From Octopus vulgaris (taxonomy: Eukaryota), in NCBI GenBank assembly GCA_951406725.2, contig OX597820.1, positions 86,428,001 through 86,492,000 on the forward strand: DNA of 64,000 bases, read 5' to 3'. The position numbers were made by a program, and so were the translations under genes. This document shows positions 3,741 through 63,945 of the stretch, piece by piece (position 1 is the first letter of the stretch; each line of letters begins with the position of its first letter). The notes beneath the pieces were generated by a model that saw only the letters and a program-made list of their open reading frames with translations, did not search any database and was not told where the DNA came from.

Positions 3741-4090
3741 AGTTACATCTTTTTTTTTTGTAGATGTATTAAGAAATAGAGGGCAAAATTATAGTCACAT
3801 TTTGGCGGCTCAGTGTTGTGGGCCAAGAAAGCAGAAATTTGAGTTGCTGAAATCAACTATCAACTGTTTTCCAAGGCTTTTTATAACGCTATACACGACG
3901 AAAACATTGGAGCTTAAATGCTAAATGGACTTCTTAATCACTTAGTGTGTGTATGTGTGTGTATGTGTGTGTGTGTGTGTTTGTGTGTGTCTGTGTGTGT
4001 GTGTGTGTGTGACATGTCGCATAACTTTTAATACTTCGGTCTTCTTTTGCACACTTCAAGTATGTATGTATGTACTTATGTGTGTGTGTA

Positions 4091-4131
<41 letters not shown>

Positions 4132-4233
4132 GCGTACATACGAACGTATGTATATATGTATACAAATCATATTTGAGTAAATTATGTGTTATGTGTTTGT
4201 GTGTGTACGTGTAGACAGACAGAGAGAAGATGG

Positions 4234-4362
<129 letters not shown>

Positions 4363-5197: not shown

Positions 5198-5571
<374 letters not shown>

Positions 5572-5771
5572 CAGTTTGCAAGGTGTCACCAAAAAAGAAA
5601 ATTATAAATGTCACTAAATATGATTAGGGTGTTAAGAGCTAAACCGCTCCAATATCGTAATGTAGTTAGCTCTTCTAGCAATGCAAGTGTTTCCTAACAC
5701 TTTATTCACATTTAGTGGCATATATTTCTTTTATTCGTTTATTCTTTTACTTGTTTCCCCTTTTTAAGTAG

Positions 5772-6170
5772 TTAGCGATAGAGAGAATTGTCAAGCAGGT
5801 ATGAATTACTCGTTTTATCTACATGGACGAGTATTCCTCTTTTTCGTTTTAGTTGCTTAGTTATGGAATATAGCTTTTGTAGATGAGGATTACCACTCAG
5901 TGGATGTTCATGGAATCTAATATCTTTAACAATATTCCAGAGTTCGTCTTCAAAGAGTGATAAATTTTGGTTTGGTGGGTACTTTCCGTTGTACTTCCGT
6001 TGTACTTCCTCGTCAGTTTCATTGTTGTTGTGAGTTTTCTTCTTTTCATCATAAAAATACGCACGCCATCTCATTCTGTTAATAAAGGACTTGGTTTCCT
6101 AGATTAAATTTTATTGGGGGGGGGCGGTACAGGGATATCTTTAATTGATGCACCCAAATTTATTTTCTCT
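5772..6170 (-). mobile_element. PLE N-terminal/pre-RT fragment (Naiad-like), inverted relative to the 6650-7700 fragment
   Basis: RMRWRAYFYD...LSLFEDELWNIVKDIRF...LVHVDKTSNSY; the DKT motif is the PLE DKG equivalent. Confidence 0.65.
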
Positions 6171-6649
6171 ATTCTCTATTATTCACTCCAGACGAAGTTG
6201 ATTTACAGTGAGAGGAGGGATATTTTATCCAGCCAGGTACCGAATTTCTCAGAGTAAAATTCCAAGGCTGGTTCCTTCCGATGGTGTGTTTCTTTTTTTT
6301 TTTTTTTGTAATCTACCCTCAGCTCTCTCCCAGGTTTGGCTACTTAGAGTGTAAAAAACAATCTTAAAACGAGGCGAATGAAGAATTAAAACATTCAAAC
6401 TGTTTGTTTATTTCCAGCTAGGATAAAAGTCCAACACGTGTTTCGATCGCACAAAACTGAACATTATGGAAATAAAACTATTGTCGATGAGAAAATTATA
6501 AATAAAGATGCAGCTAAGGATTAAAATAATAAACATAAATAAAAACTATAGCCATGATAATGATAGGCAACTGTATAACAACAAGCATAACAACGTAACA
6601 AATAATAGCAAAATATAACATTCTAATAATGGAAAAAGCTATGATAACA

Positions 6650-7700
6650 ATTTAAAACCCGGCCTAAATCAACTACTAAAAAATACAAAACAATAAAATT
6701 AAACGCAAAGTTTTATCGCAATGAGAAACAAAATTAGAACGTTCACTCCGACCTTAAACGATAACTACAACCTAAACCATAATTGAAGACATTTTTCTAA
6801 AGATCTAGACCGGATGATAATCCCCTTTGCAAGGTAGTTAACTCAAAAATACCTAGAATGTCCAACGAAACACTGAATAATTTTTTTCCGATAAAGAATA
6901 AATACCATAATTTATTTACTAAGCCAAAAATACGAATCAGTTTCTTTTTTAACTCTAAAAATCTAGCTCAGCTGCCCACAACGCCAAACAAATTACTAAA
7001 GAACAGAACAATGATATTAATACGGTAAATAATAATGAAAACCTACGTAAAAGTAATAATAACTATACTAATTTTCAAAACGAAAAGATGATTAATCCAA
7101 ATTCTATGAAAACACCACTAAAAAATAAATAACGATCCAAGGGAAAGAATTCAAATAAACAATTCTATAGATTCTATAACTAATAAATAAACATACATGG
7201 TAACTCGAAAAAAATAGTGATTTTTATGCAACAATAACAATATAATCAGCTAAAACATAAAAGAAACATAAATGTTATTAAATCTACTAAGAAAAACGGA
7301 AATAACTTTATACAGGGAAAATGTGACTGCGCTAGGAGAACGCGATGTAAATGTTAAAATAACTGTAAAATTTTACCCCTTTCTTTATAAAACAAAGGAT
7401 ACCAAATCATGGAACTTCGTTTAGAAATAATACTAAGTAATTTTCAATAGGTTTTAGTAAACTTATATGGTTGCTGAATGATGAAAATATTAGATATTGA
7501 TTAAAATTGGAAATCATTAGTACGGCGAAACCTTATAAAATAGGGGTCGAAAGATGCGATTTCTGCCTGGAGTAATTATACCAAATATTTACATCGGAAC
7601 ATAGATTAACACTAGACAAGAGAGAAATTTTATTTTACTTACACAAACAAGATTTTTTTTTTATTTAAGCAATAGAATGCATTAATTTATATAATATCCA
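6650..7700 (+). mobile_element. Degenerate Naiad-type PLE linker and GIY-YIG region
   Basis: LNNFFPIKNKYHNLFTKPKIRISF linker, CDC....C motif at ~7322, and TAKPYKIGVERCDFCLE (CxxCxE) at ~7520-7572. Confidence 0.6.
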
Positions 7701-7827
7701 TAAACCTTTCTAAACCTAACTATAATAATTATAATTATTAAGAATATGAGAATTAAATTCAATTCATAGGCCTGTATTATATATAATTATTTGCAAGGGG
7801 TCTCCTTCATCGAAAACCGGTGTTTAC

Positions 7828-7872
7828 CATGCGTTGACGAGAGGCAATTACCTTGAAACTATAGTCCGTATG
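7828..7872 (+). ncRNA. Type I hammerhead ribozyme, structurally intact (C3U core), in PLE 3' region
   Basis: CAUGCG-UUGACGA-GAGG(CAAUUA)CCUU-GAAA-CUAUAG-UC-CGUAUG: 6-bp stem I, 4-bp stem II, palindromic stem III, GUC cleavage triplet. Confidence 0.85.
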
Positions 7873-8068
7873 TAGCACTTAGGTTTTCGAGGGAGGATGA
7901 CCTCCCTTTGCAAATAACACAAGGGCACTGAGATTGTGTCTAAAGTCCATCTGGTGACGTTGATCGCCTGGGGCTAAAAGCATCAGTAACACCCCACCCC
8001 CAGTGGCTAGCCACATTCAGATGGCTAGTACACCTTACGTTGTCGAGCGCTTACTGTTTATATCTCGT

Positions 8069-8120
8069 TTTTTACTTATGTTTCAAAGCGTTTTTACGCT
8101 TTGAAACATATAAGTAAAAA
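8069..8120. repeat. Near-perfect inverted repeat (hairpin)
   Basis: tttttactta-tgtttcaaagcgt-tttt-acgctttgaaaca-ta-taagtaaaaa. Confidence 0.85.
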
Positions 8121-8377
8121 GTAATGTTAGAAGAATTGAAAATACAACTATTTATTTTCTTTTTTAATAACCACGAAGTTCTTACCGATTAACAATTATC
8201 CACTACTACTATTAATAACCTTCACAAAATTCAAATAATACAATCAACTCTGAATTTTATCACTATGACTTGTAACTAAAAAGTATGTAGTGCAATTAAA
8301 AGAATAAGTATATATATATATATATATATCTGTAAATGATATATATATATATACTTAAAGATTTTTCCGATGGCCTA

Positions 8378-8436
8378 ATAACTGAAGAGATGGCGGTGTG
8401 GATTTCCACCTCGGCATCCGAAACTCGGAGTTTTAT
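8378..8436 (+). ncRNA. Type I hammerhead ribozyme motif
   Basis: AUAA-CUGAAGA-long imperfect stem II (gatgg...gtgg/ccac...catcc)-GAAA-CUCGGAG-UU-UUAU. Confidence 0.7.
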
Positions 8437-8493
8437 CATGGCTACCGAATAATTGTTACATATTAAATTTACAGATAAATTCCTCTATCTATC

Positions 8494-8552
<59 letters not shown>

Positions 8553-8557
8553 GTTTG

Positions 8558-8592
<35 letters not shown>

Positions 8593-9474
8593 CAGACGGT
8601 TCTTGCAGCAAACGATATAAATATGAGTGCTTTTTATGTACCATGCGTCCATATTAGAGGTCATCTCAAAGTATAGAATGCAGAATTCGGTGATATAACA
8701 AACCTTGTACGTTAAGTTGGACATAAAAGTTTGACTTCGATATTAAAACCGCTTCTGTCACTATTAATTAATTGTATATACAAACATGCAAACACACACA
8801 CATTTATATATATATATATATTCATATGTACCAAGAGATGGATAGAGAGAGAGAAAGAGAACTATAAAGATATATGTATATATAGGTCTTATTAATATGT
8901 GGTCTAATATATGTGGTGCGTGTTGATATGTGTATCTTTACGTAAGTGTATATATTCAGAAGTGTTTTTGTATCTATAGATATACAATTCTATGTTTATT
9001 TCAGTGTGTATGCGTGTGCATATATGTGTATGTATGAGTCTACACAGGAGCAGGCAAAATCAACACCCACGTACAAATCCATTATATTTAAAGCATTAAT
9101 CAAAATTATTATTTAAAAGATATATTTTTGAATATTGCTTAAAACAGCAAGAACCAAGAAAGAAAGAAACCCGTGCTTGCAGCAGCTGTGTTTGTACGTG
9201 TTGTTCACAAAGGTTTTCCAGCAGAAGAACAAAAGGATAAGCGTTTTATTCAAATTTTTATTTCTTATTGCACGAAACCTATTCAAACAGTGGTATTTCT
9301 ATAGAAAACTATGCTCAGTTTACCGGTTGATCGTCGGAAACGGCAAACTCTGAGTACTGGAAATCGGAGCCTATTGATTATAATGTATTAGAGAAAACAT
9401 TTTTATTAAGTCTTGTAATTTATCGCATTTAGTGAATCAACAGAAATATATGTATATATATGTATGTAGCTATT

Positions 9475-9562
9475 CTGAAAGAAGCGGCTCAGGATAGAAC
9501 TGACTGGAGGACACTGATCCAACGAGTGACCGAGAGTCGACTTCGACTGAGCGGATAGAGAG
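9475..9562 (+). mobile_element. 3' end of an RTE (BovB-like) LINE, 5'-truncated
   Basis: LKEAAQDRTDWRTLIQRVTESRLRLSG* matches the RTE/BovB C-terminal A.DR..WR......SR.RL motif; followed by a simple-repeat tail. Confidence 0.7.
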
Positions 9563-9603
<41 letters not shown>

Positions 9604-10170
9604 CGTGCACCATTATATATATTTATATATATAGATATATATGCATACATCATTGTTTATATATATAGAAGTCAATCGTAATTGTTTCTTAATTATTTTT
9701 ATTTTCTTACAAAATATATTGATTTCTTAAGTCGAACTTGAGTAGTTAGACAGGTATAAAAATAAAAGAAAAAATTCAGATTAGGCAAACCACTATCAAC
9801 ATATTGATTAAGATAAATTCGTCCAAAATCAAGACATATATTAATATATGGAACATAGACAAATATAGGAATATTAAATATATATAAAGATATATAATTA
9901 TATAAATATGCGTGTTGAAATATAGTGATAATATAGCAAATGATAGGAATATAAAAAAGAACGGGTATTGAAAAATTTGGAAACAATGAAAAGTTAATAA
10001 TAGGTGTCTAATAAGATTTCGGATTACCATTCTAGATAATTTTCCAACATCCGTTTCTGGGGTTCATTCTTCCAAGCGAAAAATTAATCTTGAAATCCGT
10101 TTTCGGAGAACGCCTCCTTCGTGAGGGAGAAAAATGATATTCACGGTAGATATGCAATTAGTGCACTGAC

Positions 10171-11813
10171 TGATTTTTTATTACCCACGAGGGGCTACAC
10201 AGAATTGGACAATACAAACATTGGGGACACAAAACATCACAATTACATAAATATGGGTAAAATGAATTAATGAAAATGATATATGAAAGTGGTGCTAACG
10301 GCCCCATCCGCTAGCATCACTTACCTGTCCTTCAGTCTTGCTCAGTCTCAATATAATATGCCTTCACCTCTATCCTTCTCTCAAATCTCTCTTCAAATTC
10401 CTTCACCGTCTCTTCATCCATATCCACTTCAATTATTCTCCAGTCCATCCTTTCGCACCTTTCCATAAACTCATCCACTTGTTCCTTTGGAATTACTGCA
10501 CATCTTTTCCCTCCCCTATTACACCATCGGTAGTCCGTCATTGTCTTTTTTATCTCCTCATTTCCTGCAATACATAAAATGTTGGGCCTGGGTTCTTTTT
10601 TAGTGTCTTGACTGTGTGTATCTTTTTTCTGTTTTCTTGTTGGTGGGGATCGGGTGGGTTCACTGTCTGCAGGGGAAGGGTGGGACTCAGAGGGTGCGGG
10701 TGGTGTTGGGGTGGACTGGGGTTGCGTACTGTTTGCTTTTCTCCTTCTCTTTCTTTTTTTCCTTCCTTCTTCCCACTCTTGCTGGATCTCTTCTTCTGTC
10801 GTTTCCTTTTCTGTTTGGTTCTCTTCTTCTTTAGTTTCTTCCTCTTTTTGGGGTTCCGTAACGATTTCCTTTTCCTTTGGTGGGGGAGGGCAGTTGGCTC
10901 TTATGTGGCCTCTCTGGCCACACTTATAACAGCACGGGGCTCTGCCCTCCACCCACACTCTCATGATGATGTTTCCCATTCTTATATTTTCTGTTAACCT
11001 TTCCAGCGTTTCAGTCTCCACCTGTACGTTCATGTCCAGGGTAGCACCCCTCCAGCCTTCATATTTTATGGTGGCATGGAGGATATCCACCTTTTCTTCA
11101 TTCCCTTTAATCACAGCTGCTGCTATATATTCGCCCTCTAGGTGTGGGGGTATTCCCTCCACCCTGATTCTCGTGGTTTTCCTGTTTAGGTACGAAGGTA
11201 GTAGGTATACCTTCTCCGTTTTTACTGCCTTGGCTGCCATTTTTCTTGCGACGCTCTCGCTCCTATATTGAACCGTCACTGTACCGTATTCCATTCCTCT
11301 TGTCAAATAAACAATTTCCTCCTCTGTCTGTTTTAGCGCCTCTTCAATAATTTCCATGCTTACTATTTCAATTCTTTTCCTTCCATTTGCGTACACTCTA
11401 TATTTGACGGTCCTGCGATCGAACCACTCACCACGCTTTGTTGGAGGTGACAGTTCGACTTCACCGTCCTCCTCTTTCATAAATTCCTGGAAGCCTGGCA
11501 GTTTAACCAGGTTTATCTCTTTTTCTTCCGACTTCTTCTTCGTTACTCCTGCATACGTATTTCCAAGCTTCTTGTCCATTCTTTTCACTGCTCTTTCTAG
11601 TTCCTCCTCAGGCGTCGACAATTCCGACAAACTTTCAAACAAATTTTCCCCGGCCATCTCTCCCGTTAGGGAGGGGCTGTCCTTGTTTGTCTCAACACAG
11701 ACAGACTAAACCTTGCGCGACCGTACAACAAAAAAAACGTTTAACAAAATTTACGTGTAACGCAGTAACAAGGAAAAATGAACTCACGACTTGTCAGTTG
11801 GACTGTACTGTTC
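10171..11813 (-). mobile_element. ORF1-only non-autonomous non-LTR retroelement (HAL1-like architecture; L1/Tx1-type ORF1)
   Basis: Identical 18-bp direct repeat tgcaattagtgcactgac at 10153-10170 and 11814-11831. 156-nt 5' UTR, one ORF, 161-nt 3' UTR ending ...gtgggtAATAAAaaatca. No RT or endonuclease. Confidence 0.85.
10332..11657 (-). CDS. Retrotransposon ORF1/gag-like nucleic-acid-binding protein, 441 aa
   Basis: Uninterrupted complex ORF with a CX2CX4HX4C knuckle (CYKCGQRGHIRANC), preceded by RRM-like segments (GTVTVQYRSESVARK; TRIRVEGIPPHL), then an acidic tract, basic RKKRKRRRK and a Pro/Ser-rich tail. Confidence 0.85.
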   Translation of the reverse strand: MAGENLFESLSELSTPEEELERAVKRMDKKLGNTYAGVTKKKSEEKEINLVKLPGFQEFMKEEDGEVELSPPTKRGEWFDRRTVKYRVYANGRKRIEIVSMEIIEEALKQTEEEIVYLTRGMEYGTVTVQYRSESVARKMAAKAVKTEKVYLLPSYLNRKTTRIRVEGIPPHLEGEYIAAAVIKGNEEKVDILHATIKYEGWRGATLDMNVQVETETLERLTENIRMGNIIMRVWVEGRAPCCYKCGQRGHIRANCPPPPKEKEIVTEPQKEEETKEEENQTEKETTEEEIQQEWEEGRKKRKRRRKANSTQPQSTPTPPAPSESHPSPADSEPTRSPPTRKQKKDTHSQDTKKEPRPNILCIAGNEEIKKTMTDYRWCNRGGKRCAVIPKEQVDEFMERCERMDWRIIEVDMDEETVKEFEERFERRIEVKAYYIETEQD

Positions 11814-11959
11814 TGCAATTAGTGCACTGACAAGGTAGGAGGCAATCGCAAGCTTATATAGAAGAACAGTTGTATGTATGCAAATAATATAGGTCTTCAT
11901 GAGAGCTGATGGGAGTAAAAACTACGTTACTTACAGAGCAATATATTGTTATAGGTAAT

Positions 11960-12350
11960 AAAACCGAAATTTTGGAGAGAATTATTTGATGAAATGTAGT
12001 TCCATTGCTTTTCGGTATTGCGGATCGTCCCGTGCACATTTCGAAGAGGGAAAAATTTTGAATTTTTCGTCGCTGCATATTTCCAGATGCTTACTTAATG
12101 GAATCTTGCGTAATTCCTCTTGTCGTATATGTGGATTATTGCACGTTGGCAGAGGGAATTATTTGTTTCGCTAATGTAATTTGAGCAGGTAATGCAGTAT
12201 ATGAGGTTTTGCGTTTTGTAGTTCATATCTGCATTTATTTTGGAAAGAGACCCGCTCTTGAATTTTATGTGAGAACCACTTTCCAAGTTTTTGAAGTTGT
12301 AGATGTTTCATGTTCCACATCTCCTCTCTCCACACTCTTTTACAAAGAAT
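11960..12350 (-). mobile_element. PLE GIY-YIG endonuclease fragment, same family as 45600-46015
   Basis: NLIYCITCSNYISETNN; the nucleotide sequence closely matches the reverse complement of the 45620-46015 region. Confidence 0.8.
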
Positions 12351-12452
12351 TCTTATTCCTTCTCTTATTTGAATTCTATATCTTATATAATTGAATAAGC
12401 TGTTTGTACATTCACAAAATTTTGTTTGACAAGTTCGAGAAAAGAACGAAAG

Positions 12453-12495
<43 letters not shown>

Positions 12496-12648
12496 GATGT
12501 AACTGGATTGGGTGTTCTTTTCTCTTTTTGCCATCAGTGATTTTATTTTTGATCTATATAAATGAAGATATTTCTTTCGTCTGGCTGCTTTTCTTTCTAC
12601 ACAACAGAAAGTTACATTGCGGTACAGTCATTTTAACGAGTTGTATTT

Positions 12649-12700
12649 ATCACCCGACGAGATACATCTGCACCACCGGATGTTGAAAAATTGCCGTGAT
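12649..12700 (+). ncRNA. Degenerate type I hammerhead motif, core CCGACGA (U4C)
   Basis: AUCAC-CCGACGA-...ACAUCUG/CGGAUGU-GAAA-AAUUG-CC-GUGAU; stem I is perfect, stem III and cleavage site are mutated. Confidence 0.5.
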
Positions 12701-12758
12701 TAATAATAAATTCTCGTATATTCCATCTTCCGTCTCTCATTTGCCGTATATAATGATG

Positions 12759-12822
<64 letters not shown>

Positions 12823-13084
12823 GATGAGTGTACATATGTATATATATGTATAATTAGGTATATATATATATATATACATATATATCAAATCCTAAAAAAG
12901 AAGATTAACAAACACAAGAAAAAAGACAACAACTCGAGAACGTGGTACATGTAAAGTATTAGCAGACGCTCAGGGAAGGAAAGAATGATGGTTTAACGTT
13001 TCTTCAGAAACAGAAGAGGAAGGTCCAATAGAAAGGAAGACGGATCACACGTGGTTATATTTTGATATACATAATCCTTTCAGC

Positions 13085-13492
13085 TATAGGAATTATAGCT
13101 GAAATTTGGGAGAGGGGTATGAGCTATTATATCGACTCCAGTACTTAACTGGTACTTAATTTATCGATCAGAAAGGATGAAAGGCAAAATCGACCTCGGT
13201 GGAATTCGAATTCAGAATATAGCGCAGACGAATTGCCTCTAAACATCCCGCATGGCGTGCTAGATTCTGCTAGTTTGCTGCCTTATTGTTTCAAATTTTG
13301 CCACAAGGGTAGCCGTTTTCGAGGAGGGGACAAGTCGATTACATCAATCCCAGTGTTTCACTGGTACTTAATTTACCGATCGAGAAATGATGAAAGGCAA
13401 AGTTGACCTTGGCGGAATTTGAACTCAGAAAGTAGCGACGGTCGGAACACCAGTAAGTATTTCGTCCAGCACACTAATGATTCTGTCAGTTC

Positions 13493-13557
<65 letters not shown>

Positions 13558-13771
13558 TCTTTTCTAATTTACACACAAGGCCCAGAATTTTGGGGAAGGG
13601 GGTCAATCCATTAGATCGACCCCAGGACGCAACTGGTGCCTAATTTTTCGAGTCCGAAAGGATGAAAGGCAAAGTCGACCACTGCGGAATTCGAACTCAG
13701 AACGTAAAAACAGACGAAATACCGCAAAGTACCTTGCCCGGCGCGCTAACGTTTCTGCCAGCTCGCCGCCC
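13085..13771 (-). mobile_element. Three head-to-tail SINE family A copies (~13085-13284, ~13287-13497, ~13559-13771)
   Basis: Each contains gatgaaaggcaaa.t.gacc....ggaatt.gaa.tcagaa; the first and third end in the reverse complement of the ggcggcgagctggcagaa head. Confidence 0.85.
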
Positions 13772-13847
13772 TCTCCATCTCTCTATATATACATGTATGT
13801 ATGCATGCATGTACCTATGTATGCATGTATGTATGTATGTATGTATT

Positions 13848-13910
<63 letters not shown>

Positions 13911-13913
<3 letters not shown>

Positions 13914-14515
13914 ACATTTAGAGGACTGACCACCAAATCGCCATTACCATGAAGAATGTGTTCTCAATAAAAATCCCACAAAGGAACCAAAATGTAAAAG
14001 TAAGCAAGGCAAATGAAAATATACGAAATAAAAAATGATTACCTATGTACCATTTGTTTCACTTGTTAATATTTACGTATATGGACAGACAAGCATTTGC
14101 AAGATCATCAGCATAGTCTGTCGTTTACAAAACACAATTTCCAGAACTAGATACAGAAAGCTCAACCGAAATCCATCATGTATCAAGTTCTACAAATTAT
14201 AGTTAGATGTATCCTTTCAAATGCTTTCACTTTGGCGCGCTGAGATTGGAAACTACTCTGCAGTTAATGAACTACAGCAGTAAATTTACCGGTTAGAGAA
14301 CATTTTTTTAAATTTAAAGTTAAATAAGGGTAGAAATTGACATTAATCAATTAAAACCAATGGCGTAGCATATTTTAAAAAATCCGAAGATTAAAAATTG
14401 TGGTACATACAAAATTTAGAGGACTGACCACTAATAGCGGACAGCCTATATGCTAAACATAGACGTCAAATCGCCATTACCACGAAGAATGTGTTCTCAA
14501 GAAAAATCCCAGCAT

Positions 14516-14519
<4 letters not shown>
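13911..14519 (-). mobile_element. Non-coding PLE-derived unit with terminal direct repeats and an internal hammerhead
   Basis: tttagaggactgaccac...aaatcgccattacca.gaagaatgtgttctcaa.aaaaatccca occurs at ~13917-13978 and ~14415-14511; flanked by (TA)n and (CT)n. Confidence 0.6.
14043..14116 (-). ncRNA. Type I hammerhead ribozyme motif
   Basis: Minus strand CUAUG-CUGAUGA-UCUUG...CAAGU-GAAA-CAAAUGG-UA-CAUAG; perfect 5-bp stem I and canonical core. Confidence 0.7.
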
Positions 14520-14568
<49 letters not shown>

Positions 14569-14577
14569 GTATATATA

Positions 14578-14620
<43 letters not shown>

Positions 14621-15802
14621 TATATATATGAATGTATACAAGGAGTGAAAGACGCGCAAAAAGTTTCAAATACGTTTGTAGATATAATTGTATAACACCC
14701 GTAGTACTCAGTCAACTTGTTGCTGCTCAACAGCTGGTTCAAAGCCTCGGGATGTGGTTTATTCGATTTCTTTGTTTTTAGCATACACAACGTACCAATA
14801 CTTGAATAATACGCAATCTTTTCTATATACAATGAAATATAGAAGCACCAAAATAAAAACATTAACGACCGTGTAGCAGCATACGGGGACTGTATTTAAT
14901 CGTACATATAGAAATGTGTAATAGCTGTCTGTGTATATTCAACACAGTAGTGTTGGTATAGTGCATAGAATAGTTCAGGTATACTACGCATACAACTATA
15001 AATAAAATGTATACAGCAATGTTGATAGACTATACACAACATTGTGTTTAGAATCTGTACAGTTACACATACAGACTGAATAAGAGTAGGGTATAAATAG
15101 TGAACATTAACAGTGTAAGTACACTATACACATCAATGTAGACAGCCTGCATATATGATCTAAAAAGGCAGGATACTCAGACTAACGGGTGTAAAAATTG
15201 AGCGATAGAAAACGAAAAAGGAGCGTCGGAAAACGTTTACAAAATGAAACGGTGAGACAAGCTAATAGGAAAGAAAAAAATCAATTATACAAATAATCAG
15301 ATTACATGAGAGAAATCGAAATACTGCCGGTTTGGCAAACTAAGGTGGGAACAAACTTTGATCACAGCTTTGTAACAACGTACAATTTAATTTGAATAGC
15401 ATTTATTCAACATAAATTGAAACTAACACGATAGTAAGTGTTGAATTAATGGCAAAGCAGATGCAACTGTCAGTAATGCATTAATATTGCAAGATGGCAC
15501 GAAATGGAAATAAACACATGGCAAGTTAGGTAAAAATCAGCACACAGATCGTAAAAAAATTGAAAAGGAACTTATTTCATCGCGGCCCAAAACAGTGATA
15601 AAATTAAATTTGGTAAACGTTGTACTCAGAATATACCGGGATAAATATATGTTACTGACGTATTTGTCCATCTACTCTTCTGTCTCAGCTACTTCAAGCA
15701 CAGTATATATACTTCATTACATAAATATATGCTGAAAACTCAATAATTACCATATCACCAATCCATATGTGTGTGTCTGTGCGTGTGTATGTGTGTGTGT
15801 GT

Positions 15803-15842
<40 letters not shown>

Positions 15843-16364
15843 CTGTATGTGGAATTAAAACACACTGAGCCACTATGTACTCGACACCTCTTGTCCTGAC
15901 GTCCGATTTCTTTAATTAAAAATCTGCATTTAGATATGCATTTACATACCCTAATCAATAACGTTCAATAAGTGATTTTTCAAACTTCTATCCATCTTCT
16001 ATCATGATCATATCATGTATGTATCTCTCACTAAACCAATAAGAATAATCCATATATTTTAGTTTTTTCTTATACTTAATTTAATGTATTTTAATTTTAT
16101 ATAATTTTTTTTTTAAATTTTATTTCAGTTTATTTTTGTTTTGATGTTCAATATTTTTTATTTTATTTTATTATATTTATTATATTTGCATACTTTATTC
16201 ATCTTTTTATTTATTTTTCTATTTATTTACTTATCTATATGTTTCCTAATTATAATATATGGTATATAGTACATTCACAAATATTGAAAACTTACCAATC
16301 AAAGAAAATCTCAATACATAGCTTTTAACTTTTAACCTGCTAATACTATATACTTCTCTCTCTT

Positions 16365-16482
16365 GAAGCCTGACGAAGTCCTACTACAGTATAGCTTGAA
16401 TGTGGCAACTTCCTGACATTAAACAGTATGCTTGGAGATTACCATCAACTAGATGGTACAACTGAAACATATATGTAGGTTT
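16365..16482 (+). ncRNA. Type I hammerhead motif with long stem II
   Basis: GAAGC-CUGACGA-AGU...ACU-GAAA-CAUAUAUG-UA-GGUUU; palindromic stem III, one mismatch in stem I. Confidence 0.55.
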
Positions 16483-16713
16483 TTTATCTGTATTTATCTT
16501 AATTTATTTTTCTTTGAAATTTCAACTTCCAATCAATTTATTTATTTGTAATGTTTTTTCAAAAAAACCTCATCATTTCATAGCATGCAAATAAATCAGT
16601 AATTCCCTCCAGTTATTCTCCACTTTCTTCTCCTTATTTTCCCTCAATATTGATAATTTCAATAATCCTAAACATTTACCAATGACTTTCCCGTTATATG
16701 ATAAGGATATGAA

Positions 16714-16922
16714 GGCGGTGAGTTGACAGAAACATTAGCAACATGGGCGAAATGCTTAGCGGTATTTCGTCTGTCTTTGCATTCTGAGTTCAAATTCCGC
16801 CGAGGTCGACCTTGCCTTTCTTCCTTTCGGGTCAATAAATTAAGTACCAGTTGCGTACTGGGATCGATCTAATCGACTGGCTTCCTCCCCCAAAATTTCG
16901 AGCCTTCGGCCTAAAGTACAGA
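16714..16922 (+). mobile_element. SINE family A, full length
   Basis: ggcggtgagttgacagaaac head, B box gagttcaaattcc, common tail ...cccccaaaatttcgagccttcggccta. Confidence 0.85.
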
Positions 16923-17557
16923 TGATCATACGATACGCATTAAACCAATGGAATACATCGGATTATATAATCTCTAATGGGGATTTTGACATCGGGGGTT
17001 AGGGTTAATAATGAGGTTACTACTATCACTAGCCTCATATCCAGCTCTCATCTCAGCCCTCAGGACTGTTTGCATGCATCAGTGCTCTACCGACAAATCA
17101 AAAACATTGGCAGCTCAGCTAAATCAGTGTGAGCTTAACCTTACGAGTTTATATTCTTGGTTCCAATCTCTAAGAAATTATCACTCTACAAAAGATTACC
17201 AATTTTAAATTCCTACATCTCACAAATCAATGAATTTTTTTTCAGAACAAGCCTAAATAGTGGAAATAAAATAAAAGCCTTCAATATTACAGTAGAGGCA
17301 CATCTACCTAAAATTAGCAACGACGTAATCTTAATCATAAAACTGTGTAACAAATTAAAATTTTTATATTTACTTTTATTTTTTTGTATATGGCCAGTAA
17401 GTTTTATTTCTTATTTGCTTCTCTCTAGAAATCAAAGGAAATGACAACTATTACCTTCAAACTTTGCTTTTGCCTCCTGGAGATCACTGTTATGAAACAG
17501 ACTTATTTTCCATTACATTTCAGACAGATTCAATGCCGAGTTGTTGAAACAGAAATA

Positions 17558-17670
17558 TTCTTTTGTACTCTAGGCACAAGGCCCGAAATTTGGTGGGAGG
17601 GGCCAGTCGATTAGATCGACTCCACTACGCAACTGATATTTAATTTATCGACCCCGAAAGGATGAAAGGC
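17558..17670 (-). mobile_element. SINE family A, 3' half
   Basis: Reverse complement of the family tail (ggcacaaggcccgaaattt...gaaaggatgaaaggcaa). Confidence 0.8.
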
Positions 17671-19107
17671 AATGCTTGTCATTTGCTTGACCATAACCAC
17701 TTGAGTATATCACTCAGTGACTGTCAATATGAGGAACTCTTTGAAGTTTGAATAAATGTAACAAAAGCAAAGTTTCAAAGAATTATTATGTATTTTTCAT
17801 ACTCTCTTGGAGTTAGCAAACAAGAAATAAAAGCTGTTACCCAAAGACAAAAGTCGTATTACACAGTGTAATAATTCAAGGTTCCATCGCTATTACTAAA
17901 GTTATGAATCTTTTGACATATGCAAGTACCCTAAAATGTCATTAAGAAATTAATGCTCGATATACCTATGAAGCTTCAAGAAAGTTATGCTTATCAACTA
18001 TTCTTAATGCTTCACGATACTTTAGCTAGATGTGGATCTGAAGTTACAATCACTCACCTTAGTAACTTTACTGAAAATAGAAATTGAGTATAATCTGGTT
18101 TAAATTCCCTTTTAATATTACATTACACCACGTATCCTGTTCTATATTAGCTTAAAACTTTGCCTCCTAAAATTTCCAAAGATTAAATAAGTGTATAACC
18201 AATCAAGCCACTAAGTTTTGTGACTATATCCATACTTAACTAGATATATAGGGTACCTAATATCAATAAAACCTTACAATAATTCCATGGGAATGAATAA
18301 GGTTTCAACTTCAAATAGTTTTCATTTAGATTATAATTTCCACATACATTCGTATAGAAATCATAATAAAAGAAATCAAAACTCACTTGCAGCTTATATG
18401 AAGAAGCGAATAGTGTCGTACTTTACTCTTTAAAATAAAATATTTTTACTCGACTGAGTTATATAGAAAGGTAATCTTAAACTGCATGTTATGTAAAATG
18501 AAAGCTATGAGACTTTCATAGTTAAATAAACTTGAATCATGGATTGTGTCATATACGTACAAACAAAAAATTAAAGTACTCCATTCTTCACTAATAGTGT
18601 ATCTACTCTGTTGATTAAAATACAACCAGTAATTGTTTACCTGTTTTTGTTTACTTGCATCTAACTGCGAATGTTTAAATTTACATGGAAACATACTAAC
18701 AGGTAATATTAAATTTTACATGAAAAATGTTTACACCAAAATAATAATATACTATTCAACGTGTATTTCGAGTGATTTTTCTGTTAATGATGCATTATCT
18801 TGAGGTACAATAGTACGTGAAATAATCACCTTACTCTAGTATCTAATATGTAGGACCACCAATTTAGACACTTAATACATTAAACTACACAGTGTGATTA
18901 TACCTACACACACATGCACAAACGCACGCACACACATAGATACATACAGACGTACAAATATATATATATATATATATATATAGATGGATCGATAGATATA
19001 TAGATATATATAGATATATATATATAGATAATGATAAATATCAATGTGAGTTATATACAGTAGCGGTAACACAAATGGCAAAAATACGTCACGTTATATA
19101 TAGATAG

Positions 19108-19177
<70 letters not shown>

Positions 19178-19306
19178 ATATGTAGGTTTATATATATATA
19201 TGTGTATATATGTATATATATATATTTATATATATGTATAAATATTGATATATATATGTATAAATATTAATATATATGTATGCTTGTATATATATAAATA
19301 TATAAA

Positions 19307-19338
<32 letters not shown>

Positions 19339-20125
19339 GCCATTTCTCTAAAAAAGGATGTTTATCAGTAAACGAATTTACCTTTCTAAATTATATAAAA
19401 AGTTGTAATTTTCATGTCTGTATTGTGAATACTATATTGTTAAATTTCACACTTCTTCATACACTATTACGTTAATATACAAGTATGATTATTCAACAAT
19501 CGATTTGTAATTATTTATATTATTTTTTATTCGTTCGTTATTATGTTTATCTTAAACACAAATTTCTTACCGATTTTGGTTTCTTGGATAACGTTATTGC
19601 TTTGGCACTTTGCAATCTTGTTCTACGCTGATGCTTGTAGCTAATATTTACTGTCTTTTCTGAAAGAAAATCATTTTATGTTCGTTAAACTCCCGTGAGT
19701 TTCGTGATGTAAAACAGCTATTCTATGTAAATAATAACTAAAATAAAAGGAAATATTAACACAGTACATGTTATAATGTTGTGAATCCCTCGTGTTTACA
19801 GCGACTTTATACAGTATATTAATTAAAGATTAATAAATGGTGAGCTAATAGGAACCAAGCTATCTCTTTCACCCAGAGTAATTTGTGGATTCCTGTGAGG
19901 AGAGGCGAAACGTTTTTTGGTTAAATTTCGAAACCCTATGATAGGATCTTATAAAATTACTTCATTCAACGAGTTTGTGCTCGCAGTTCCTTGGAACATT
20001 TGATGACGTTGTTGATTTTATGTGGCTATTCGAGTTATCTTTTTAGCTCCTATTTCTAGCAATTGTAGGCGCTATTTTTCACTCTTAATTATGTATGCTA
20101 CCTTTTTGGTAGAATACATAATTTT

Positions 20126-31321: not shown

Positions 31322-31489
31322 CTACAGTTATATGAATTAGGCATGAGTGTGTGTATTATGCGCGTTTGTGCATTTATGCGTATATGTGCGTGAGTACGTG
31401 TGTATTACTGCCCAGAAAACTGAGATCATTTAACATTAGCTTGTTTCATCGTCCCTACATTCTTAAAAGCGCAACAAAGCAAAAAAGAG

Positions 31490-32110
31490 CTATGAAGTAT
31501 TGGTAAATTCTGGGTGATGATGGTGAAGGCTTCTTCGTTTCTGGGGTTGTATGTAGATATGTAAGGTAGTATTTTCGGGGAAGGTGTGTTGTTGTGTTGA
31601 ACTTTTCTTAAAATTTCTATGTTGATTTCTGTTGCACGTCTGATCCCATCCTCTATGAGTTGAGCTGGGTAATGTCTGTCAATTAGGGTGTTTTTGAGTT
31701 CTTGCAGTCTAAAGTTCCTGGTATTTTGTTCTGACACTATTGTGCATATCCTTCTTGCAAGGTTGAAGGGGATGTTTGTTTTAGTGTGTCTTGGGTGGCA
31801 TGAATTAAAGAGAAGGTATTGTTTGGCGTCTGTGGCTTTGTAGAAAATGTCTGTTTCTATTTTAAGGTTAATTTTTTTAATTAGTATATCCAAGAATGGG
31901 AGCTCCTTTTGGTTGTATTCCATTGTGAACTGTATATTTGGGTTTATGCTGTTCAATAGGTTTTTAAATTTTAGGAGTTTATCTGTGTTTTCATTCCAGA
32001 GAATAAAACAATCGTCTAAGAATCGTTTCCAGTTCTCTTTTATGTATTGAGAGAGGGGATTTCCAAAGATTGATAAAGATTCCTGGTAAATGATTATTTC
32101 CATGTACGAC
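31490..32110 (-). mobile_element. PLE reverse transcriptase C-terminal/thumb fragment
   Basis: WKRFLDDCF, INPNIQFTME, LPFLDI, TDIFYKATDAKQYL..SCHP.H.K.NIP..LARRI; truncated at both ends. Confidence 0.9.
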
Positions 32111-39154: not shown

Positions 39155-39367
39155 TTCAGTAGTTTTATTTTTATAACGTGCTTTCACTTCACTACCGAGC
39201 GCAGTTCTGTGTGCCTAGGGTATGTGCTGTGATTTGTTGTGATGCTCTGATTGTTACTGTATTGAAAGTGTTCTGCGTAGGATGTGTGCGGTGCCTAGTA
39301 GTGCAATTTTCTGTATGTTATATGTGTTTGTAAGTCCTGGTGTTTTTGTTATGTATTTGTCTGGATA

Positions 39368-39580: not shown

Positions 39581-39790
39581 TAAGGCGGCGAGCTGGCAGA
39601 TTCGTTAGCAAGCCTGGCAAAATGCTTAGCGGCATTTCGTCTGCCACTACGTTCTGACTTCTAAATCCGCTGAGATTGACTTTGTCTTTCATCCTTTCCG
39701 GGTCGATAAATTAAGTACTAGGGGGACATTAAGTCAATTAGTCTCCTCCCCAAAATTTCAGGCCTTGTGCCTACAGTAGAAAGGATTATC
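39581..39790 (+). mobile_element. SINE family A
   Basis: aaggcggcgagctggcagattcgttagca head and common tail. Confidence 0.85.
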
Positions 39791-39819: not shown

Positions 39820-40340
39820 GTAGGAGCTCCTGGAGCCTTGCATGCGTTGCGGTCTTACTACCTGCAGCCTTCGGTACCACCCTTTTCTTTCTTCTCAGCT
39901 ATCTAATATATTCCTGATTGTTGTGACCGTGCTAAGGAAGCAACCGTTTTCTAACAGTTCTACTGGGCACCCTATTCTAATTTCCTTTATATTCCACTTG
40001 ATGCCTTTTGATACTCTTCCCAAGGACCCAACACTAACAGGTACTATCTTCACCTTCTTCATTTTCCATAGCCGAGCTATTTCGTACATAAGAGGGTTGT
40101 ATCCATCTATCTTTTCGTCTTCGTTTTTGCTTATTCGTGGGTCAAAGGGGAATGCAATATCAACTATATAGCATATGCGGTAGCCCTTGTCTACCATTAC
40201 TAGATCCAGACTATTATGCTCTAGCACCTGATCTGTTTGGATTGAGAAATCCCAGAGGATTTTGCTAGTCTCCGACTCCGTCACTCTCTGTGGTCTGTGC
40301 TCGTACTAGCCTCTCGAGCCACCACTTTTCGCACAGTCGA
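39820..40340 (-). mobile_element. R4/Dong restriction-like endonuclease domain and 3' UTR
   Basis: KILWDFSIQTD....N.LDLVMVDK....YIVDIAFPFD..I..NEDEKIDGY..L..EI.RLW....IVPV.VGSLG; the PD motif is degraded to LD. Confidence 0.9.
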
Positions 40341-43370: not shown

Positions 43371-44519
43371 TGCTACTATAGTAGTTACATCACAGCTGTT
43401 GCTGTTACTATTGTTGCTAACACTTGATTGTGATATATTTATTACTTGTAATATTTAGTTAGAGTAAGCATCACCATCATAATCCTGCATCCATTACTAC
43501 CAACTCCACCACCATCATCATCTTCATCACCACCAACACCACCATCACCATCACTACTATTACTACTACTAACTCTACCTCCATTAGAGCAGGTGCAGCT
43601 GCTGCTGCTGCTGCTGCTACAGCTGCAATTACTGTACTACTACCATTAAAAGAGTACAACATGAATAACAACAACCATATGTTTTACGGTAATCCGTGGT
43701 GACAGATTGAAAGATGGTGGATTACGTTGATTCACTCGTGGGTGGATGTTTGGAAAGATGGCGGAGTAAAGACAGGGATGATGATGATGACGGCGACGAC
43801 AACGAGAACGGTAGCGATGACGACGACAGCGACGAGCCGATGACGACGGTGAAAATTAGTAATTAATAACAAAAAAATAACTGTTTGTATGATAAAAAAT
43901 ATACTATACTTGTGTTATTCGAGGCAATATCAATTTGTAGTAGTTACGTCACAAGGCCTATTCAAGCATGTATACACACATGCGTATATATATATACATC
44001 ACAATGCCTTCATAAGCATATACATACACATATATACATATAATTTTTGATTTATTGCAGTGATTATAGAGACACATGGAGACGATATTAATTGCCTTGC
44101 TATCAATCTTGTGTAGCAGGGCTATACAAACCAGAAAAGACAGCCAATTAAGATATCACTACTGCAAGATATGGATAGAAATGTAAAGACATGAATGACA
44201 TTACAGAGGTAAGGCCTGCGGTAGAAAGACGGGTAGAGATAGACATACATATGTGCCTAAAAGAAAACCTACAGAAGCCCCAACACAATCATATTCACGC
44301 TTGAGATCACACATAAGCACGCTGATTACGACATACATATACATACAAAAACGTACACTAACACACGCCCGGACGTCGTGATGTACTTATACATATCTAT
44401 GTAAATGCGTATGTGTGTATGCATGTATATATATATATATATATGCATACAAAAATATTCATATATATGTGTAGATATTCACATAAATATTCATATATAT
44501 ATATATATGTGTGTGTTGA

Positions 44520-46015
44520 TATTCAGTTTTTAGATATACTCCTAAAATCTTTGTGCCCTTTAATACCCAGTTATGTACGAGATGGCATAGGTTTCATCCA
44601 ACATACCCCCCCCCCCACTGTCGCAGAAGGTACTATACTTACAAGTTTTGAAATCACCAATCTCTATACTAATACACCTCACACTTTAGGCCTAGAAGCA
44701 ATCAAATACTGGCTAAAGAAACATAGGGGACGGATAGAGGAATGCTTCAAGACTGACCTCATCACTAAGTCAGTACTAGAAGAAAATACCTTTAGATTCG
44801 ACTATAAAACATATGAACAGAAAAAAGGGCACGGATATGGGTACGCGGTTTGCGCCCTCGTATGCAAGCTTAGTTATGGGATACTTGGAAGAAAAACTTT
44901 ATGAAGAAGTAGAAAAAAATCTTTTGATCAGGAGTACAAGAAATATGTCATCAAAAAGCTTCCTTGATGATTGCTTCATCTTCTGGGACAGATCGAATGA
45001 AGATCTAATTATATTTAACAATATACTGAACATACTTCACCCATCCATCAAATTCACGACAGAATCCAGTTGCAATGAATTACCATTCCTGGATATCCAC
45101 ATAAAAATACAGAAGTCCACAATCACAATAGACATATTTTACAAAAAAAAAAAAACTGATTCACACCAATATTTAAATTTCTACTCTTGCCATCAATCAC
45201 ACATCAAAAGAAACATCCCATACTGCATGGCAAGACGCATCTGGGCTATACTGACTGACTTCAAAATACGTGAAATCCGTCTCAATGAACTCAAAGGCTT
45301 CCTCACAATGCAGAAATGCCCCTTAGGATTAATTAATGAGGGAATTAAAAAAGCGATGAAACTGAACATCACCCAACTACGAACACCTAAGGAAAAAGTT
45401 AATGAAAACACGATTCCATTCGTTAACACACAGTCCTGGAATAACCAACATCTTTCACGCCATAAAATCGAACTTGCCTAAACTCATATAAAGCCCCAAA
45501 AGGAAAAATCTGATTGATAAAAAAAACACCTTACGGAATAGCAGATGCTAACCAAAAAATCTTCAAAAACACCTTACAAGGGCAGAATTCAAATCAGAGA
45601 ATGAATCAGAATTCTTAGTAAAACAATGTGGAGATAGGAGATGTTGAACATGCAGCAATATCAACAACTTCAAATACTTGGAAAGTGGTTCCCACATAAA
45701 ATTCAGGAGCGGATCCCTTTTCAAAATAAATGCTGATATGAAATGCAAAACGCAAAACCTCCCATATTGCGTTACTACAAAGAGAATTACATTGGCGAAA
45801 CAAATAATTCCTTTTGCCAACGTGCAATAATCTACAAGCAACATAACCGACATGGGGAATTACGCAAGATTCCATTAAGTAAGCAACTGGAAATATGCAA
45901 CAACAGAAAATTCAATATTTTTCCCTTTTACAAACGTGCACAGGACAATCCGCGATACCGAAAAGCAGAGGAACTACATTTCATCAAAGAATTCTCTCCA
46001 AAATTGAATGTTTGA
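44520..46015 (+). pseudogene. PLE pol (RT + GIY-YIG endonuclease), frameshifted and 5'-truncated
   Basis: SFEITNLYTNTP, GTDMGTRFAPSYASLVMG, FLDDCF, LPFLDI, then YIGETN...AEELHFIKEFSPKLN; spread over several frames. Confidence 0.9.
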
Positions 46016-51230: not shown

Positions 51231-51459
51231 GGCGGCGAGCTGGTAGAAACGTTAGCACGCCGGGCGAAATTCGTACCCGTATTTCGTCTGTCGTTACGTT
51301 CCGAGTTCAAATTCCGCCGAGGTCGACTTTGCCTTTCATCCTTTCGGGGTCGATAAATTAAGTACCAGTTACGCATTGGGGTCGATGTAGTCGACTTAAT
51401 CCCTTTGTCTGTCCTTGTTTGTCCCCTCTGTGTTTAGCCCCTTGTGGGTAGTAAAGAAT
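51231..51459 (+). mobile_element. SINE family A with an alternative 3' tail
   Basis: Standard head and body, then ...tgtttgtcccctctgtgtttagccccttgtgggtagtaaagaa instead of the usual tail. Confidence 0.9.
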
Positions 51460-55379: not shown

Positions 55380-57500
55380 AAGCACACTCTCCTCCAGTTT
55401 AGGCGTTTTAAATTATCTTTTAATTTGTCCTGATGCCGTAGAGGTGGTCAGTCTATATTGCATCGTGAATTACAAGCTGACCACTATTTAAGCGAAAGAT
55501 TTGTCCACACCATCACATCTATTCCGAATATTCCACACTTTTCCAGGATAGTCCTATTCTTTACTCTATAATCCGACTCAAACTATAAAGTGTCCATATA
55601 AAAGAGATTTTAGAGTAACTAACTTATACACATCAGTTTGTGTCCTTCGTGAGACATCATGGACATTCCAAAGTCAGTCAATCATAAAGCTTTCCAAAAG
55701 CTATACTGGACTTTCCAATATGGGTTTGGACCTCCCTTTCGAGTTTAGCATCGCTTGTTACTGTAGAACCCCAATATGTGAAGGCATCAGTGCTTTGCCT
55801 TCAATAAACAGGCTTTTCAGAGTTTTGCCTTCAACGTGCTGGGCAAGATTTGTAGAGAGTTACCAGAACGTGGCTGATACAAGAATTCAGTTCTTTTTAT
55901 GCTGATAGTCATGCCAAAAGAATTGACTGTTGCTGCAAATCTATCAAGGGTGTGCTGGATGCACTCGAGTGTATGAGTAACCAGGGCTTATATTCCTATT
56001 TTCAAGAAACAGTCTTCTACATCAGAAAAGGAACAATCCAGGATTACTGCAAAAAATAATGCAAATAATACTGGTGGCAAAACAACGAACTTGTTTTGTA
56101 CAATTTTTAATATCGAAAGGCTGAGACTGATCCCCATTTCAGAGAACGGAAGTCTTTAAATCTTTATGTAGTGATACTATGACATTTAGCATTTACTGAG
56201 GAATCCCGTGCTTCGCTAATACTTTCCACAAAACCTGCCAATATACCGGGTCGAAGACCTTTGTTAGGTCAACAAATACGGTTGAGATCCCATCGGTCAT
56301 GAATAACCATGGGATTGCACCTACAAAGTTACACTCCGAGGCATGAGTCCGGGCAAGGTTGTTTATGGAAGGCCAGCAGTCGCCCATGCATACCAGCCTC
56401 CCCTCTCCACACCACTGATGCTATCCAAGGGAAAGGCAAAGGCCGATACAGCTTGGCTCCAGTGACGTCGCAATTCATTTCTACAGCTGAGTGAACTAAA
56501 GCAACGTGAAATAAATACTCAAGAACACAACACGCAGCCCGGTCCGGGAATCAAACTCACAACCTCACGATCATAAGCTCGACGCTCTAACCACTGAGCC
56601 ATATGCCTTCACACCAAATACGGTACAGAGGTCTTTATTATGCTCCGGGGTCTTCACCTGAACTTGCCACAAACTAAATACCACATTCACTGTCCCTCGA
56701 CATGAACTAAACCCATACTGACTCTCTGGATAGACAGAACCGACAAAGTCAATCTTAATTCTGTCTAGGATGACGCTAGAGAGGATCTTTCCTGCATCAG
56801 AGAAGCGATATGCCATGATAAGTTTCACATTCGTACTTATTACCTTTATATTTATATATATGTATAATCGTTGCATCTTTGAATTGTCGGGGAACAGTTA
56901 CTATTTGCCACATTTAGACCATAAACTCTCTCAGTTTATGTATCAAAATATTTCCGCTACATTCAAAATTTTCTTCAGAAATACAATCCTTTCCTGGAGC
57001 TTTTCAATTCGTCAGTTGTTTTATAGCCTCATTCACTTCATCCAAAAATGTCAGTTACCGGTCTTTGAAGGATACTATTGACTTAGTTCATGTCTATATT
57101 TGTATGTCTGTTGTGCTATTGTTTATAAAATGTTCTGCTCAGCGCTTTGATATGTCATTATGATCTGTGAGAAGATTCCCTACTGTAGAAAGAACAAGAG
57201 AGCACCCGTCTTTACTTGGACCAGATACTCACTTCAAATTTTGATAGAAACCTTTCATATAATGTTTGTCAGCTGTTGGTTTGAACAGTGTTTATGGCAG
57301 ACTTGTAAAGCCTTTTCTTTCTAACAGTGTTCTTATCTGCAATCCATTCTTTGTAAAGTCTATATATCTCACCTTTTCTAGCCTACTTCCCACACAATTG
57401 AAAGCAACACCATCCTAAATAGTCTGCTTTGTAGTTAGGAAGAGGGCACGGTCTGTGAAATTGCTCCCATAAGTCTCACAGAACGACCATCTACTTCTTG
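55380..57500 (-). pseudogene. Decayed RTE-clade LINE ORF (APE + RT), split by a SINE
   Basis: GKILSSVILDRI...PESQYGFSSCRGT....FSLWQ.Q.K..EHNKDLCTVF|VDLTKVFDPV....LWKVLAKHGIP. Confidence 0.8.
56283..56614 (-). mobile_element. tRNA-derived SINE family C with 10-bp TSD
   Basis: A box tggctcagtgg, B-box-like gagtttgattccc; caaatacggt duplicated at 56273-56282 and 56615-56624. Confidence 0.85.
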
Positions 57501-63389: not shown

Positions 63390-63945
63390 TGATTCCTCCG
63401 AGGTCGACTTTGCTTTTCATCCTTTCGGGGTCGATAAATTAAGCACCAGATGCTTACTGAGGTCGATCTAATCGACTGCCCCACCCCGCCTCCCCAAAAT
63501 TGCAGGCCTTATGCATAGAGTAGAAAAGAATATTATACTGCCTTGATTCATGTGCACTGTGTACTTTATGTGTGTGTGTGTATGTACGTTTGTGCATGTG
63601 TGTCAATGTTGTGTATGTGTGATTCCATGTACGCATATATATGTATATAAATGTGTGTATATACATTGACATGTCTACAAGTTTAAATATATGTAATGTA
63701 ATGTAATATATGCAAATATTATATAGATAATATTGGGTTTTGTAACCACGACAGTAATTTCGGGGTCGGGTGTTAGTCGATTGCATCAATCCTAGCACTC
63801 AAGTGGTACTTATTTTATCGATATCCAAAAGAATCTAAGTCAAAGACGATCCTGACGGCATTTGAACTGAAAACATTAATGTCTGAAGAACTGCTGCTAA
63901 GCATTTTTACCACCGCCATAACGATTCTGCCAGCTTGCCAGTTTA
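63390..63945. mobile_element. Two SINE family A copies (~63390-63530 plus strand; ~63735-63945 minus strand, diverged)
   Basis: ccgaggtcgactttgcttttcatcctttcggggtcgataaattaag and the reverse-complement family motifs. Confidence 0.7.

Follow-up and report, generated by a model that had tools for sequence, protein, structure and literature searches.

The 64,000-nucleotide stretch of Octopus vulgaris DNA analysed here (contig OX597820.1, positions 86,428,001 to 86,492,000; the window) is AT-microsatellite-rich animal DNA in which two different retroelements end in the same short hairpin: a copy of a short interspersed element (SINE), and a non-autonomous retroelement that carries only the first open reading frame (ORF1) of a long interspersed element (LINE). 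The SINE, named 51231 after its start (51231..51458 (+), 229 nt), is a putatively tRNA-headed member of what we call family A and lies within a (TA)n run. Its head and body are 75-84% identical to those of five other family-A copies, its head also deviates from the other copies at several positions, and it retains 20 CpG, versus 8-16 in those five copies. An A-box-like motif (51241-51251 (+)) and a B-box-like motif (51303-51315 (+)) were located by eye against the consensus for RNA polymerase III boxes. ARAGORN and Rfam gave no tRNA match for the family-A head, and the Rfam matches obtained were microsatellite-driven only. Alignment of 11 family-A copies places a switch from the usual to a variant 3' tail near position 51403, just past the shared body; this variant tail (51404..51458 (+)), which directly follows the body in place of the usual tail, occurs in 51231 only. 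An abundant Octopus SINE form presumably carries the variant ending as well.

The second element is 1643 bp long (10171..11813 (-)) and is bounded by an 18-bp target-site duplication (3' copy at 10153..10170 (-), 5' copy at 11814..11831 (-)). It consists of a 441-aa ORF1 (10332..11657 (-)) and a 161-nt 3' untranslated region (UTR) module common to many related contigs (10171..10331 (-)), and terminates in AATAAAAAA followed by short TCAG units. The duplication and the A-rich end indicate that it retrotransposed as a unit. ORF2 is absent, only the 161-nt UTR lying between the ORF1 stop and the duplication, and tblastn of ORF2 against 4000-20000 returned a single match (E 2.8) outside the element and no ORF2 remnant. 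A remnant hidden in the UTR was also rejected, because the C-termini of 120 ORF2 relatives match none of its frames. A possible 5'-3' pairing, considered on account of a 15-nt complement between 51409-51423 (+) and 11677-11691, was discarded as well: the element's own UTR stays unpaired and 295 of 300 shuffles did as well, and the complement is probably due to chance.

The tail match between the two elements, reported in the initial annotation of the window, is real. Positions 51415-51459 (+) of the SINE align with 10173-10217 (-) at 80% identity over 46 nt (E 2.7e-4 within the window), with a local alignment score of 44 against 14.4+/-2.4 for shuffled sequence, a score attained by none of 1000 shuffles. 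The 21-nt tail motif has two matches in the window at up to three mismatches; both are exact and both sit at the 3' end of a retroelement, as had been expected, and 100 shuffles yielded none. The fold described earlier was reproduced with the sequences as quoted, a GCCC/GGGU stem around a 5-nt CUYGU loop (GCCC[CTTGT]GGGT at 51437..51449 (+) in the SINE, GCCC[CTCGT]GGGT at 10183..10195 (-) in the ORF1-only element).

The usual family-A tail had been regarded as a different signal, which was not borne out, since it too folds into a 4-bp stem around CUUGU, AGGC[CUUGU]GCCU. Relative to the GCCC/GGGU version, the loop and the closing C-G pair are the same and the next two pairs are flipped in a compensatory manner. 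The usual and the variant tail are thus two versions of one signal. That most family-A SINEs carry the usual ending holds in part: it is present in 5 of the 10 other copies (starting at 16714, 13770, 39584, 63392 and 17672) but not in the remaining five. The hairpin reads AGGC[CTTGT]GCCT in the copy at 39584..39790 (+), at 39760-39772, and GGGC[CTTGT]GCCT in a 5'-truncated copy (17555..17672 (-)), at 17572-17584; it is mutated in the copies at 16714..16925 (+) and 13565..13770 (-) and in the 5'-truncated copy at 63392..63535 (+). Copies 13282 and 63939 are degraded or cut. Copies 13495, 38275 and 3242 show a third, older-looking tail form, in which a decayed hairpin is followed by ATTTGAAA instead of AGTAGAAA. 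Across the 64 kb the hairpin class occurs exactly four times, always at the 3' end of a retroelement, versus a mean of 0.02 in shuffled sequence.

The ORF1 protein links the second element to a known type of LINE. AlphaFold2 and fold searches predict two RRM folds (residues about 76-159 and 158-240), and one CCHC knuckle (residues 242-257) scores just below the Pfam cut-off; a low-complexity linker and a small C-terminal domain are also present. In the Atlas the protein lies near zf-CCHC and ZCCHC3-like clusters at 0.90-0.93 (ZCCHC3-like match 0.90), and it has no Transposase_22 match. Its best homologue is an Octopus sinensis gene model, with further relatives in O. vulgaris, O. bimaculoides and Argonauta. 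No RT (reverse transcriptase) or APE domain was found in 29 longer or C-terminal homologues, and no ORF1-ORF2 fusion in a search limited to very long proteins. The alignment search with ORF1 gave no loci in metagenome or viral contigs. A profile built from distant homologues retrieved 31 loci from two genome bins labelled bacterial but holding animal DNA, and 30 of these (L001-L030) are tandem arrays with an intact ORF1 and a 1158-aa ORF2.

This ORF2 has APE, RT and zf-RVT domains. Its best PDB match is human L1 ORF2p (E 3e-71), followed by R2 at 5e-25, in a set that offers no RTE or CR1 structure for comparison. Argonauta provides the sole named close relative (43%), the next named ones (lancelet, fish) being at 28-33%, and the ORF2 search returned several diverged sub-lineages at 43-68% identity. 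By this domain content (ORF1 plus an ORF2 with APE, RT and C-terminal zinc domains), L001-L030 can be classed as L1-type LINEs. The Tx1 label that we add is presumptive, being taken from the type of ORF1 and not from an RT tree. An ORF1 with RRM and zf-CCHC domains is consistent with Tx1 (PMC5203782). The window ORF1 gives 64 matches with the ORF1 of the autonomous LINEs, at up to 28% identity (best E 8e-16). In a tree of 31 rows it falls in an 18-row clade with named octopod proteins, split with support 100/100 from a 13-row clade that holds the autonomous elements and also the one fusion-like model found, P0246. Nine proteins of the window clade come from contigs of 1.3-2.2 kb, the size of an ORF1-only unit, in non-chromosomal, short-read or metagenome assemblies, and six of the autonomous clade from contigs of 2.8-6.2 kb, which is a weak hint that the whole window clade may be devoid of ORF2.

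The animal contigs with these LINEs (C3-C19 of bin G001) consist almost wholly of head-to-tail units of 6.4-6.9 kb belonging to several subfamilies, an arrangement that suggests insertion beside their own ends. Elsewhere, in G002 C16, bacterial-like DNA is joined to animal DNA. A splice-donor-like motif, G|GTRAGT, lies at or just past the last stop in all six autonomous LINE types checked (L002 at 6810-6820, L003, L005, L009, L010 and L015) and also in the ORF1-only element (10317-10326 (-)), whose UTR module starts with G|GTAAGT. The shared 3' module begins at this motif, which may be a U1-binding site or chance.

The 3' ends of the autonomous LINEs run from a C-rich and an A-rich part through AGGC[CTNGT]GCCT and a second hairpin to AATAAA. 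The first hairpin follows 58 of 58 ORF2 ends examined, overlapping loci being counted repeatedly, with the loops CTTGT (33), CTCGT (19) and CTAGT (6). These LINEs thus carry the usual family-A stem version. Of eight other family-A tails, five are similar to the 3' UTR of L015 (0-2 of 1000 shuffles reach the score), one is so marginally (14 of 1000) and two have no match. The tail of SINE 51231 matches only the ORF1-only UTR and not the LINE UTRs, and has only the loop in common with the autonomous LINEs. The proposal in the initial annotation that an unseen autonomous LINE mobilises both the SINE and the ORF1-only element therefore gains relatives with an APE-RT ORF2 and the same loop, but not a LINE with the identical stem. 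The suggested motif search for an ORF2 upstream came back empty, the variant-stem motif having no match in metagenome contigs, viral contigs or bins G001 and G002; these blanks are weak because the contigs searched hold little octopus DNA.

The second host also has a SINE of its own, tRNA-headed, unrelated to family A, roughly 125 nt long and almost without a body (L087:2400-2620 (-), L093:1680-1900 (-), L099:6210-6430 and L101:3310-3530). All four aligned copies end in TGGC[CTTGT]GCCA and a second hairpin, which is the layout of the LINE. From the second bin 400 kb were taken, of which 359 kb were scanned for hairpins, two mostly bacterial stretches being left out; the class occurs six times there (two Tx1 tails, three checked SINE tails and one unchecked copy of the same 13-mer) and never in 10 shuffles. 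In an alignment of 11 tails, pairing holds in 43 of 44 stem cells and three of the four stem pairs differ on both sides; shifted registers reach 30-57% pairing. These rows were hand-picked and are mutually related, so independent stem changes are few. Taken together, the comparisons support the view that the hairpin behaves as a conserved LINE-type 3' signal.

Contigs (Logan) of four public runs, all short and from two runs (X4 and X5) that are perhaps RNA, among others, were aligned to the ORF1-only element. Contigs carrying two different organism labels span its 5' junction unchanged, which makes the insertion common to both. The junction from the ORF1 stop to the UTR is bridged with other letters in X4 record 19, X5 record 26 and X1 record 1, and X5 holds two other 3' flanks on copies of the element. 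Since many contigs differ, three of those listed bridge the stop and UTR, and two have other 3' flanks, the ORF1-only element represents a genuine family of non-autonomous retroelements and not a one-off deletion. Contig depth, which is not copy number, is much greater on the UTR than on most of the ORF and drops abruptly at 10330-10333. At 10625-10730 and 10880-10982, which hold the Pro/Thr linker and the zinc-knuckle region of ORF1, far more contigs align than along the rest, which implies abundant diverged relatives that would be conserved there in DNA. Among the 24 loose contig ends listed (of 337), five lie at the UTR start: four are ORF1-like C-termini by eye, one of these four matching the end of P0025/P0151, the fifth is uninterpretable, and none places ORF2-like sequence next to the GCCC-type UTR. 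Three loose ends are tail variants with an identical GCCC-type stem start; the third enters a TA repeat and two carry the SINE's pre-stem sequence instead of the element's. For this reason the tail donor of SINE 51231 was likely a relative of the window element rather than that copy. A joint in X1 that skips the element (side 24, with 39 other letters between) was considered as an empty site, for which the evidence is too slight.

SINE 51231, the ORF1-only element, the intact usual-tail SINEs and the LINEs of the second host share a hairpin of four pairs whose loop is C[CUNGU]G. Since the stem is rewritten and still paired, the passengers likely borrow the copying enzyme of the L1/Tx1 lineage. 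The explanation that we put forward, and to which we give an even chance, is that this hairpin would be the signal by which the reverse transcriptase of that lineage selects SINE 51231, the ORF1-only element and the usual-tail SINEs. The ORF2 protein would read the loop and the stem would be needed for pairing only, in which case both stem versions would be acceptable to a single enzyme lineage. The GCCC/GGGU version would belong to an old, HAL1-like ORF1-only lineage that retains ORF1 to help package RNA and relies on ORF2 supplied in trans. SINE 51231 would likely have acquired its tail by a template switch, near 51403, to an RNA from that lineage, and target-primed reverse transcription would insert such elements and yield the 18-bp duplication. 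Loop reading is favoured because in zebrafish L2 a stem swap leaves retrotransposition working and a loop swap abolishes it (PMC4176376). The system proposed in the initial annotation is wider than three members, and what had been called a tail swap lies between two versions of one signal, since the autonomous LINEs found bear the usual stem and come from another host. A broader and more doubtful proposal, which we hold rather unlikely, is that octopods harbour an old and diversified lineage of ORF1-only elements whose tail has no autonomous LINE to match it. This lineage would persist as a long-term parasite of stringent L1/Tx1 LINEs, of which it keeps just the 5-nt loop, in a rewritten stem, and the lineage instead of a LINE would have donated the 3' tail of a SINE subfamily. 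If true, an animal L1-clade enzyme would be stringent and serve at least three types of passengers, and a SINE would have taken its tail from another passenger.

Several observations weigh against selection by the L1/Tx1 hairpin. The second host, from which the LINEs found come, has no DNA match with the window, so that a partnership within the octopus itself is inferred, together with an autonomous LINE of either stem version in that species. The ORF1-only 3' UTR has no significant overall match with the LINE UTRs (58-390 of 1000 shuffles), and the stem changes on both sides derive mainly from a single split between lineages (two sequences). Energetically the hairpin by itself is weak, at about -5 kcal/mol with z from -0.03 to -1.5, so folding energy lends no support. 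The stem-swap precedent, moreover, comes from L2 and would have to carry over to L1. The listing of 24 of 337 loose ends weakens the ORF2-free reading of the GCCC-type UTR, and the deep separate clade of the window ORF1 is as would be expected of a separate autonomous lineage. Finally, decayed Tx1-type subfamilies of the second host end differently, with GGGA-led stems and 6-7-nt loops (L092:14740-14830 (-), L092 about 5100, L095 about 14530), and the tail signal has therefore diversified within the clade.

The last two points feed directly into an alternative that is possible, if somewhat improbable to us, namely that this genome has, or once had, a sister family of autonomous L1/Tx1 LINEs bearing the GCCC/GGGU stem, of which the ORF1-only element would be an internal deletion; the SINE would have taken its tail from it directly, and the usual-tail SINEs would use a different Tx1 family. 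Besides the separate ORF1 clade and the varying hairpins of Tx1 subfamilies, the 43-68% identity between ORF2 sub-lineages is compatible with it, as are the 80 L1-Tx1 consensus families reported for O. vulgaris, 13 of them recently active (PMC13282606). Against this, none of the loose ends listed joins ORF2-like sequence to the GCCC-type UTR, the ORF1-only element and its surroundings contain no remnant of ORF2, and the blanks of the variant-motif search point the same way, if weakly given the little octopus DNA covered. It is also conceivable, though improbable, that the enzyme is relaxed like that of mammalian L1 and reads the A-rich end only, the hairpin being kept for 3'-end formation or RNA stability and the tails recording template switches. 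Every tail does end in an A-rich, AATAAA/AGTAAA-like sequence, L1-clade LINEs are mostly relaxed (PMC3472496) and the hairpin is weak, but two unrelated SINE families in two hosts have kept the loop and a paired stem, which passengers of a relaxed enzyme transcribed by RNA polymerase III would not need. Very improbable, in our estimate, is that SINE 51231 is a one-off chimera that arose at its own insertion and represents no SINE subfamily; the variant tail in a single window copy would fit, whereas the head differences and the 20 CpG kept are as in a young subfamily.

The preferred explanation, selection by the loop of an L1/Tx1-type hairpin, has parallels to several known systems, and the sequence comparisons partly support the idea that the system works like a stringent SINE/LINE pair with a HAL1-like passenger. 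Non-autonomous LINEs that encode ORF1 include HAL1 (L1), HeT-A (Jockey) and Ag-Sponge (CR1) (PMC5786205, PMC5753468). Like them, the window element keeps the 5' part, ORF1 and the 3' end without ORF2 and moves as a family; unlike them, its ORF1 has two RRMs and a CCHC knuckle and is related to L1/Tx1 in octopods, and its hairpin tail is shared with a SINE. It is not HAL1 proper, which is of mammalian L1 origin and has an ORF1 with a coiled coil, one RRM and a C-terminal domain. The shared 3' stem-loop with compensatory stems resembles UnaL2/UnaSINE, ZfL2 and the bivalve CR1 and L2 pairs; exchange of SINE tails is common (PMC4824008) and loop-specific recognition has been demonstrated for L2 (PMC4176376, PMC4824008). 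Unlike in the UnaL2- and ZfL2-type pairs, the partner here is of L1/Tx1 type, and AATAAA, not a microsatellite, comes after the 13-nt hairpin that forms the signal. Closer in clade are ZmSINE2/3 with LINE1-1_ZM and SINEX-3_CR with L1-1_CR, L1-clade LINE/SINE hairpins that likewise have a conserved loop and a variable stem, but their loop is UCU in place of CUNGU. The available parts of the relevant papers report L1-clade tails shared with SINEs for maize/sorghum and Chlamydomonas only (PMC3472496, PMC3747384), and a 2012 survey counts three L1-tail SINEs among 58 pairs, with no L1 or Tx1 partner in the animal rows of its table as available (PMC3747384). Some Tx1 families target microsatellites, and the crocodilian SINEU elements are thought to be moved by Tx1-Mar on account of a target preference (PMC4494074). 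That link consists of shared targets, with no LINE-like tail found for SINEU-1, unlike the tail hairpin shared here.

Repeat studies of octopus list L1-Tx1 elements and abundant SINEs and, in the sections available, name no partner (PMC13282606, PMC8967140, PMC9115989). The literature searched describes no octopus Tx1-SINE tail pair and no ORF1-only Tx1 family; Repbase, Dfam, SINEBase, subscription papers and some supplements lay outside its scope and may contain them. Motif searches of papers for a link to the octopus CORE-SINEs OR1 and OR2 gave unrelated matches only. OR1 and OR2 are tRNA-derived SINEs reportedly described by Ohshima and Okada in 1994. Family A, apparently of the same tRNA-derived type, may be one or both of them; perhaps the OR1 and OR2 families are the two family-A tail forms. 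While tail swaps and ORF1-only LINEs are already known, a stringent animal L1/Tx1 partnership is absent from the literature searched.

According to a proposal by Ohshima, stringent recognition was the ancestral state of L1-clade LINEs, and plants and mammals saw parallel shifts to the relaxed type (PMC3747384, PMC3472496). An L1/Tx1 lineage of animals whose 13-nt hairpin recurs in LINEs, two SINE families and an ORF1-only family would be a compact test case, and its natural loop and stem variants are ready for a reporter assay. In O. vulgaris, SINEs occupy about 12% of the genome, and almost every recently active SINE family is unclassified (PMC13282606), so that an L1/Tx1 partnership would name a likely engine behind an abundant class of octopus repeats.

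The window holds fragments of other retroelements, which were considered as partners and rejected, as they do not carry the hairpin. By their motifs these look like R4/Dong-type (39243-39334 (-) and 39895-40305 (-)), Penelope-type (31426-32109 (-) and 44362-45481 (+)) and RTE-type (56091-57045 (-)) elements. Between 35998 and 39071 lie three copies, two of them inverted, of a 350-470-nt repeat with (TAA)n runs at its borders.
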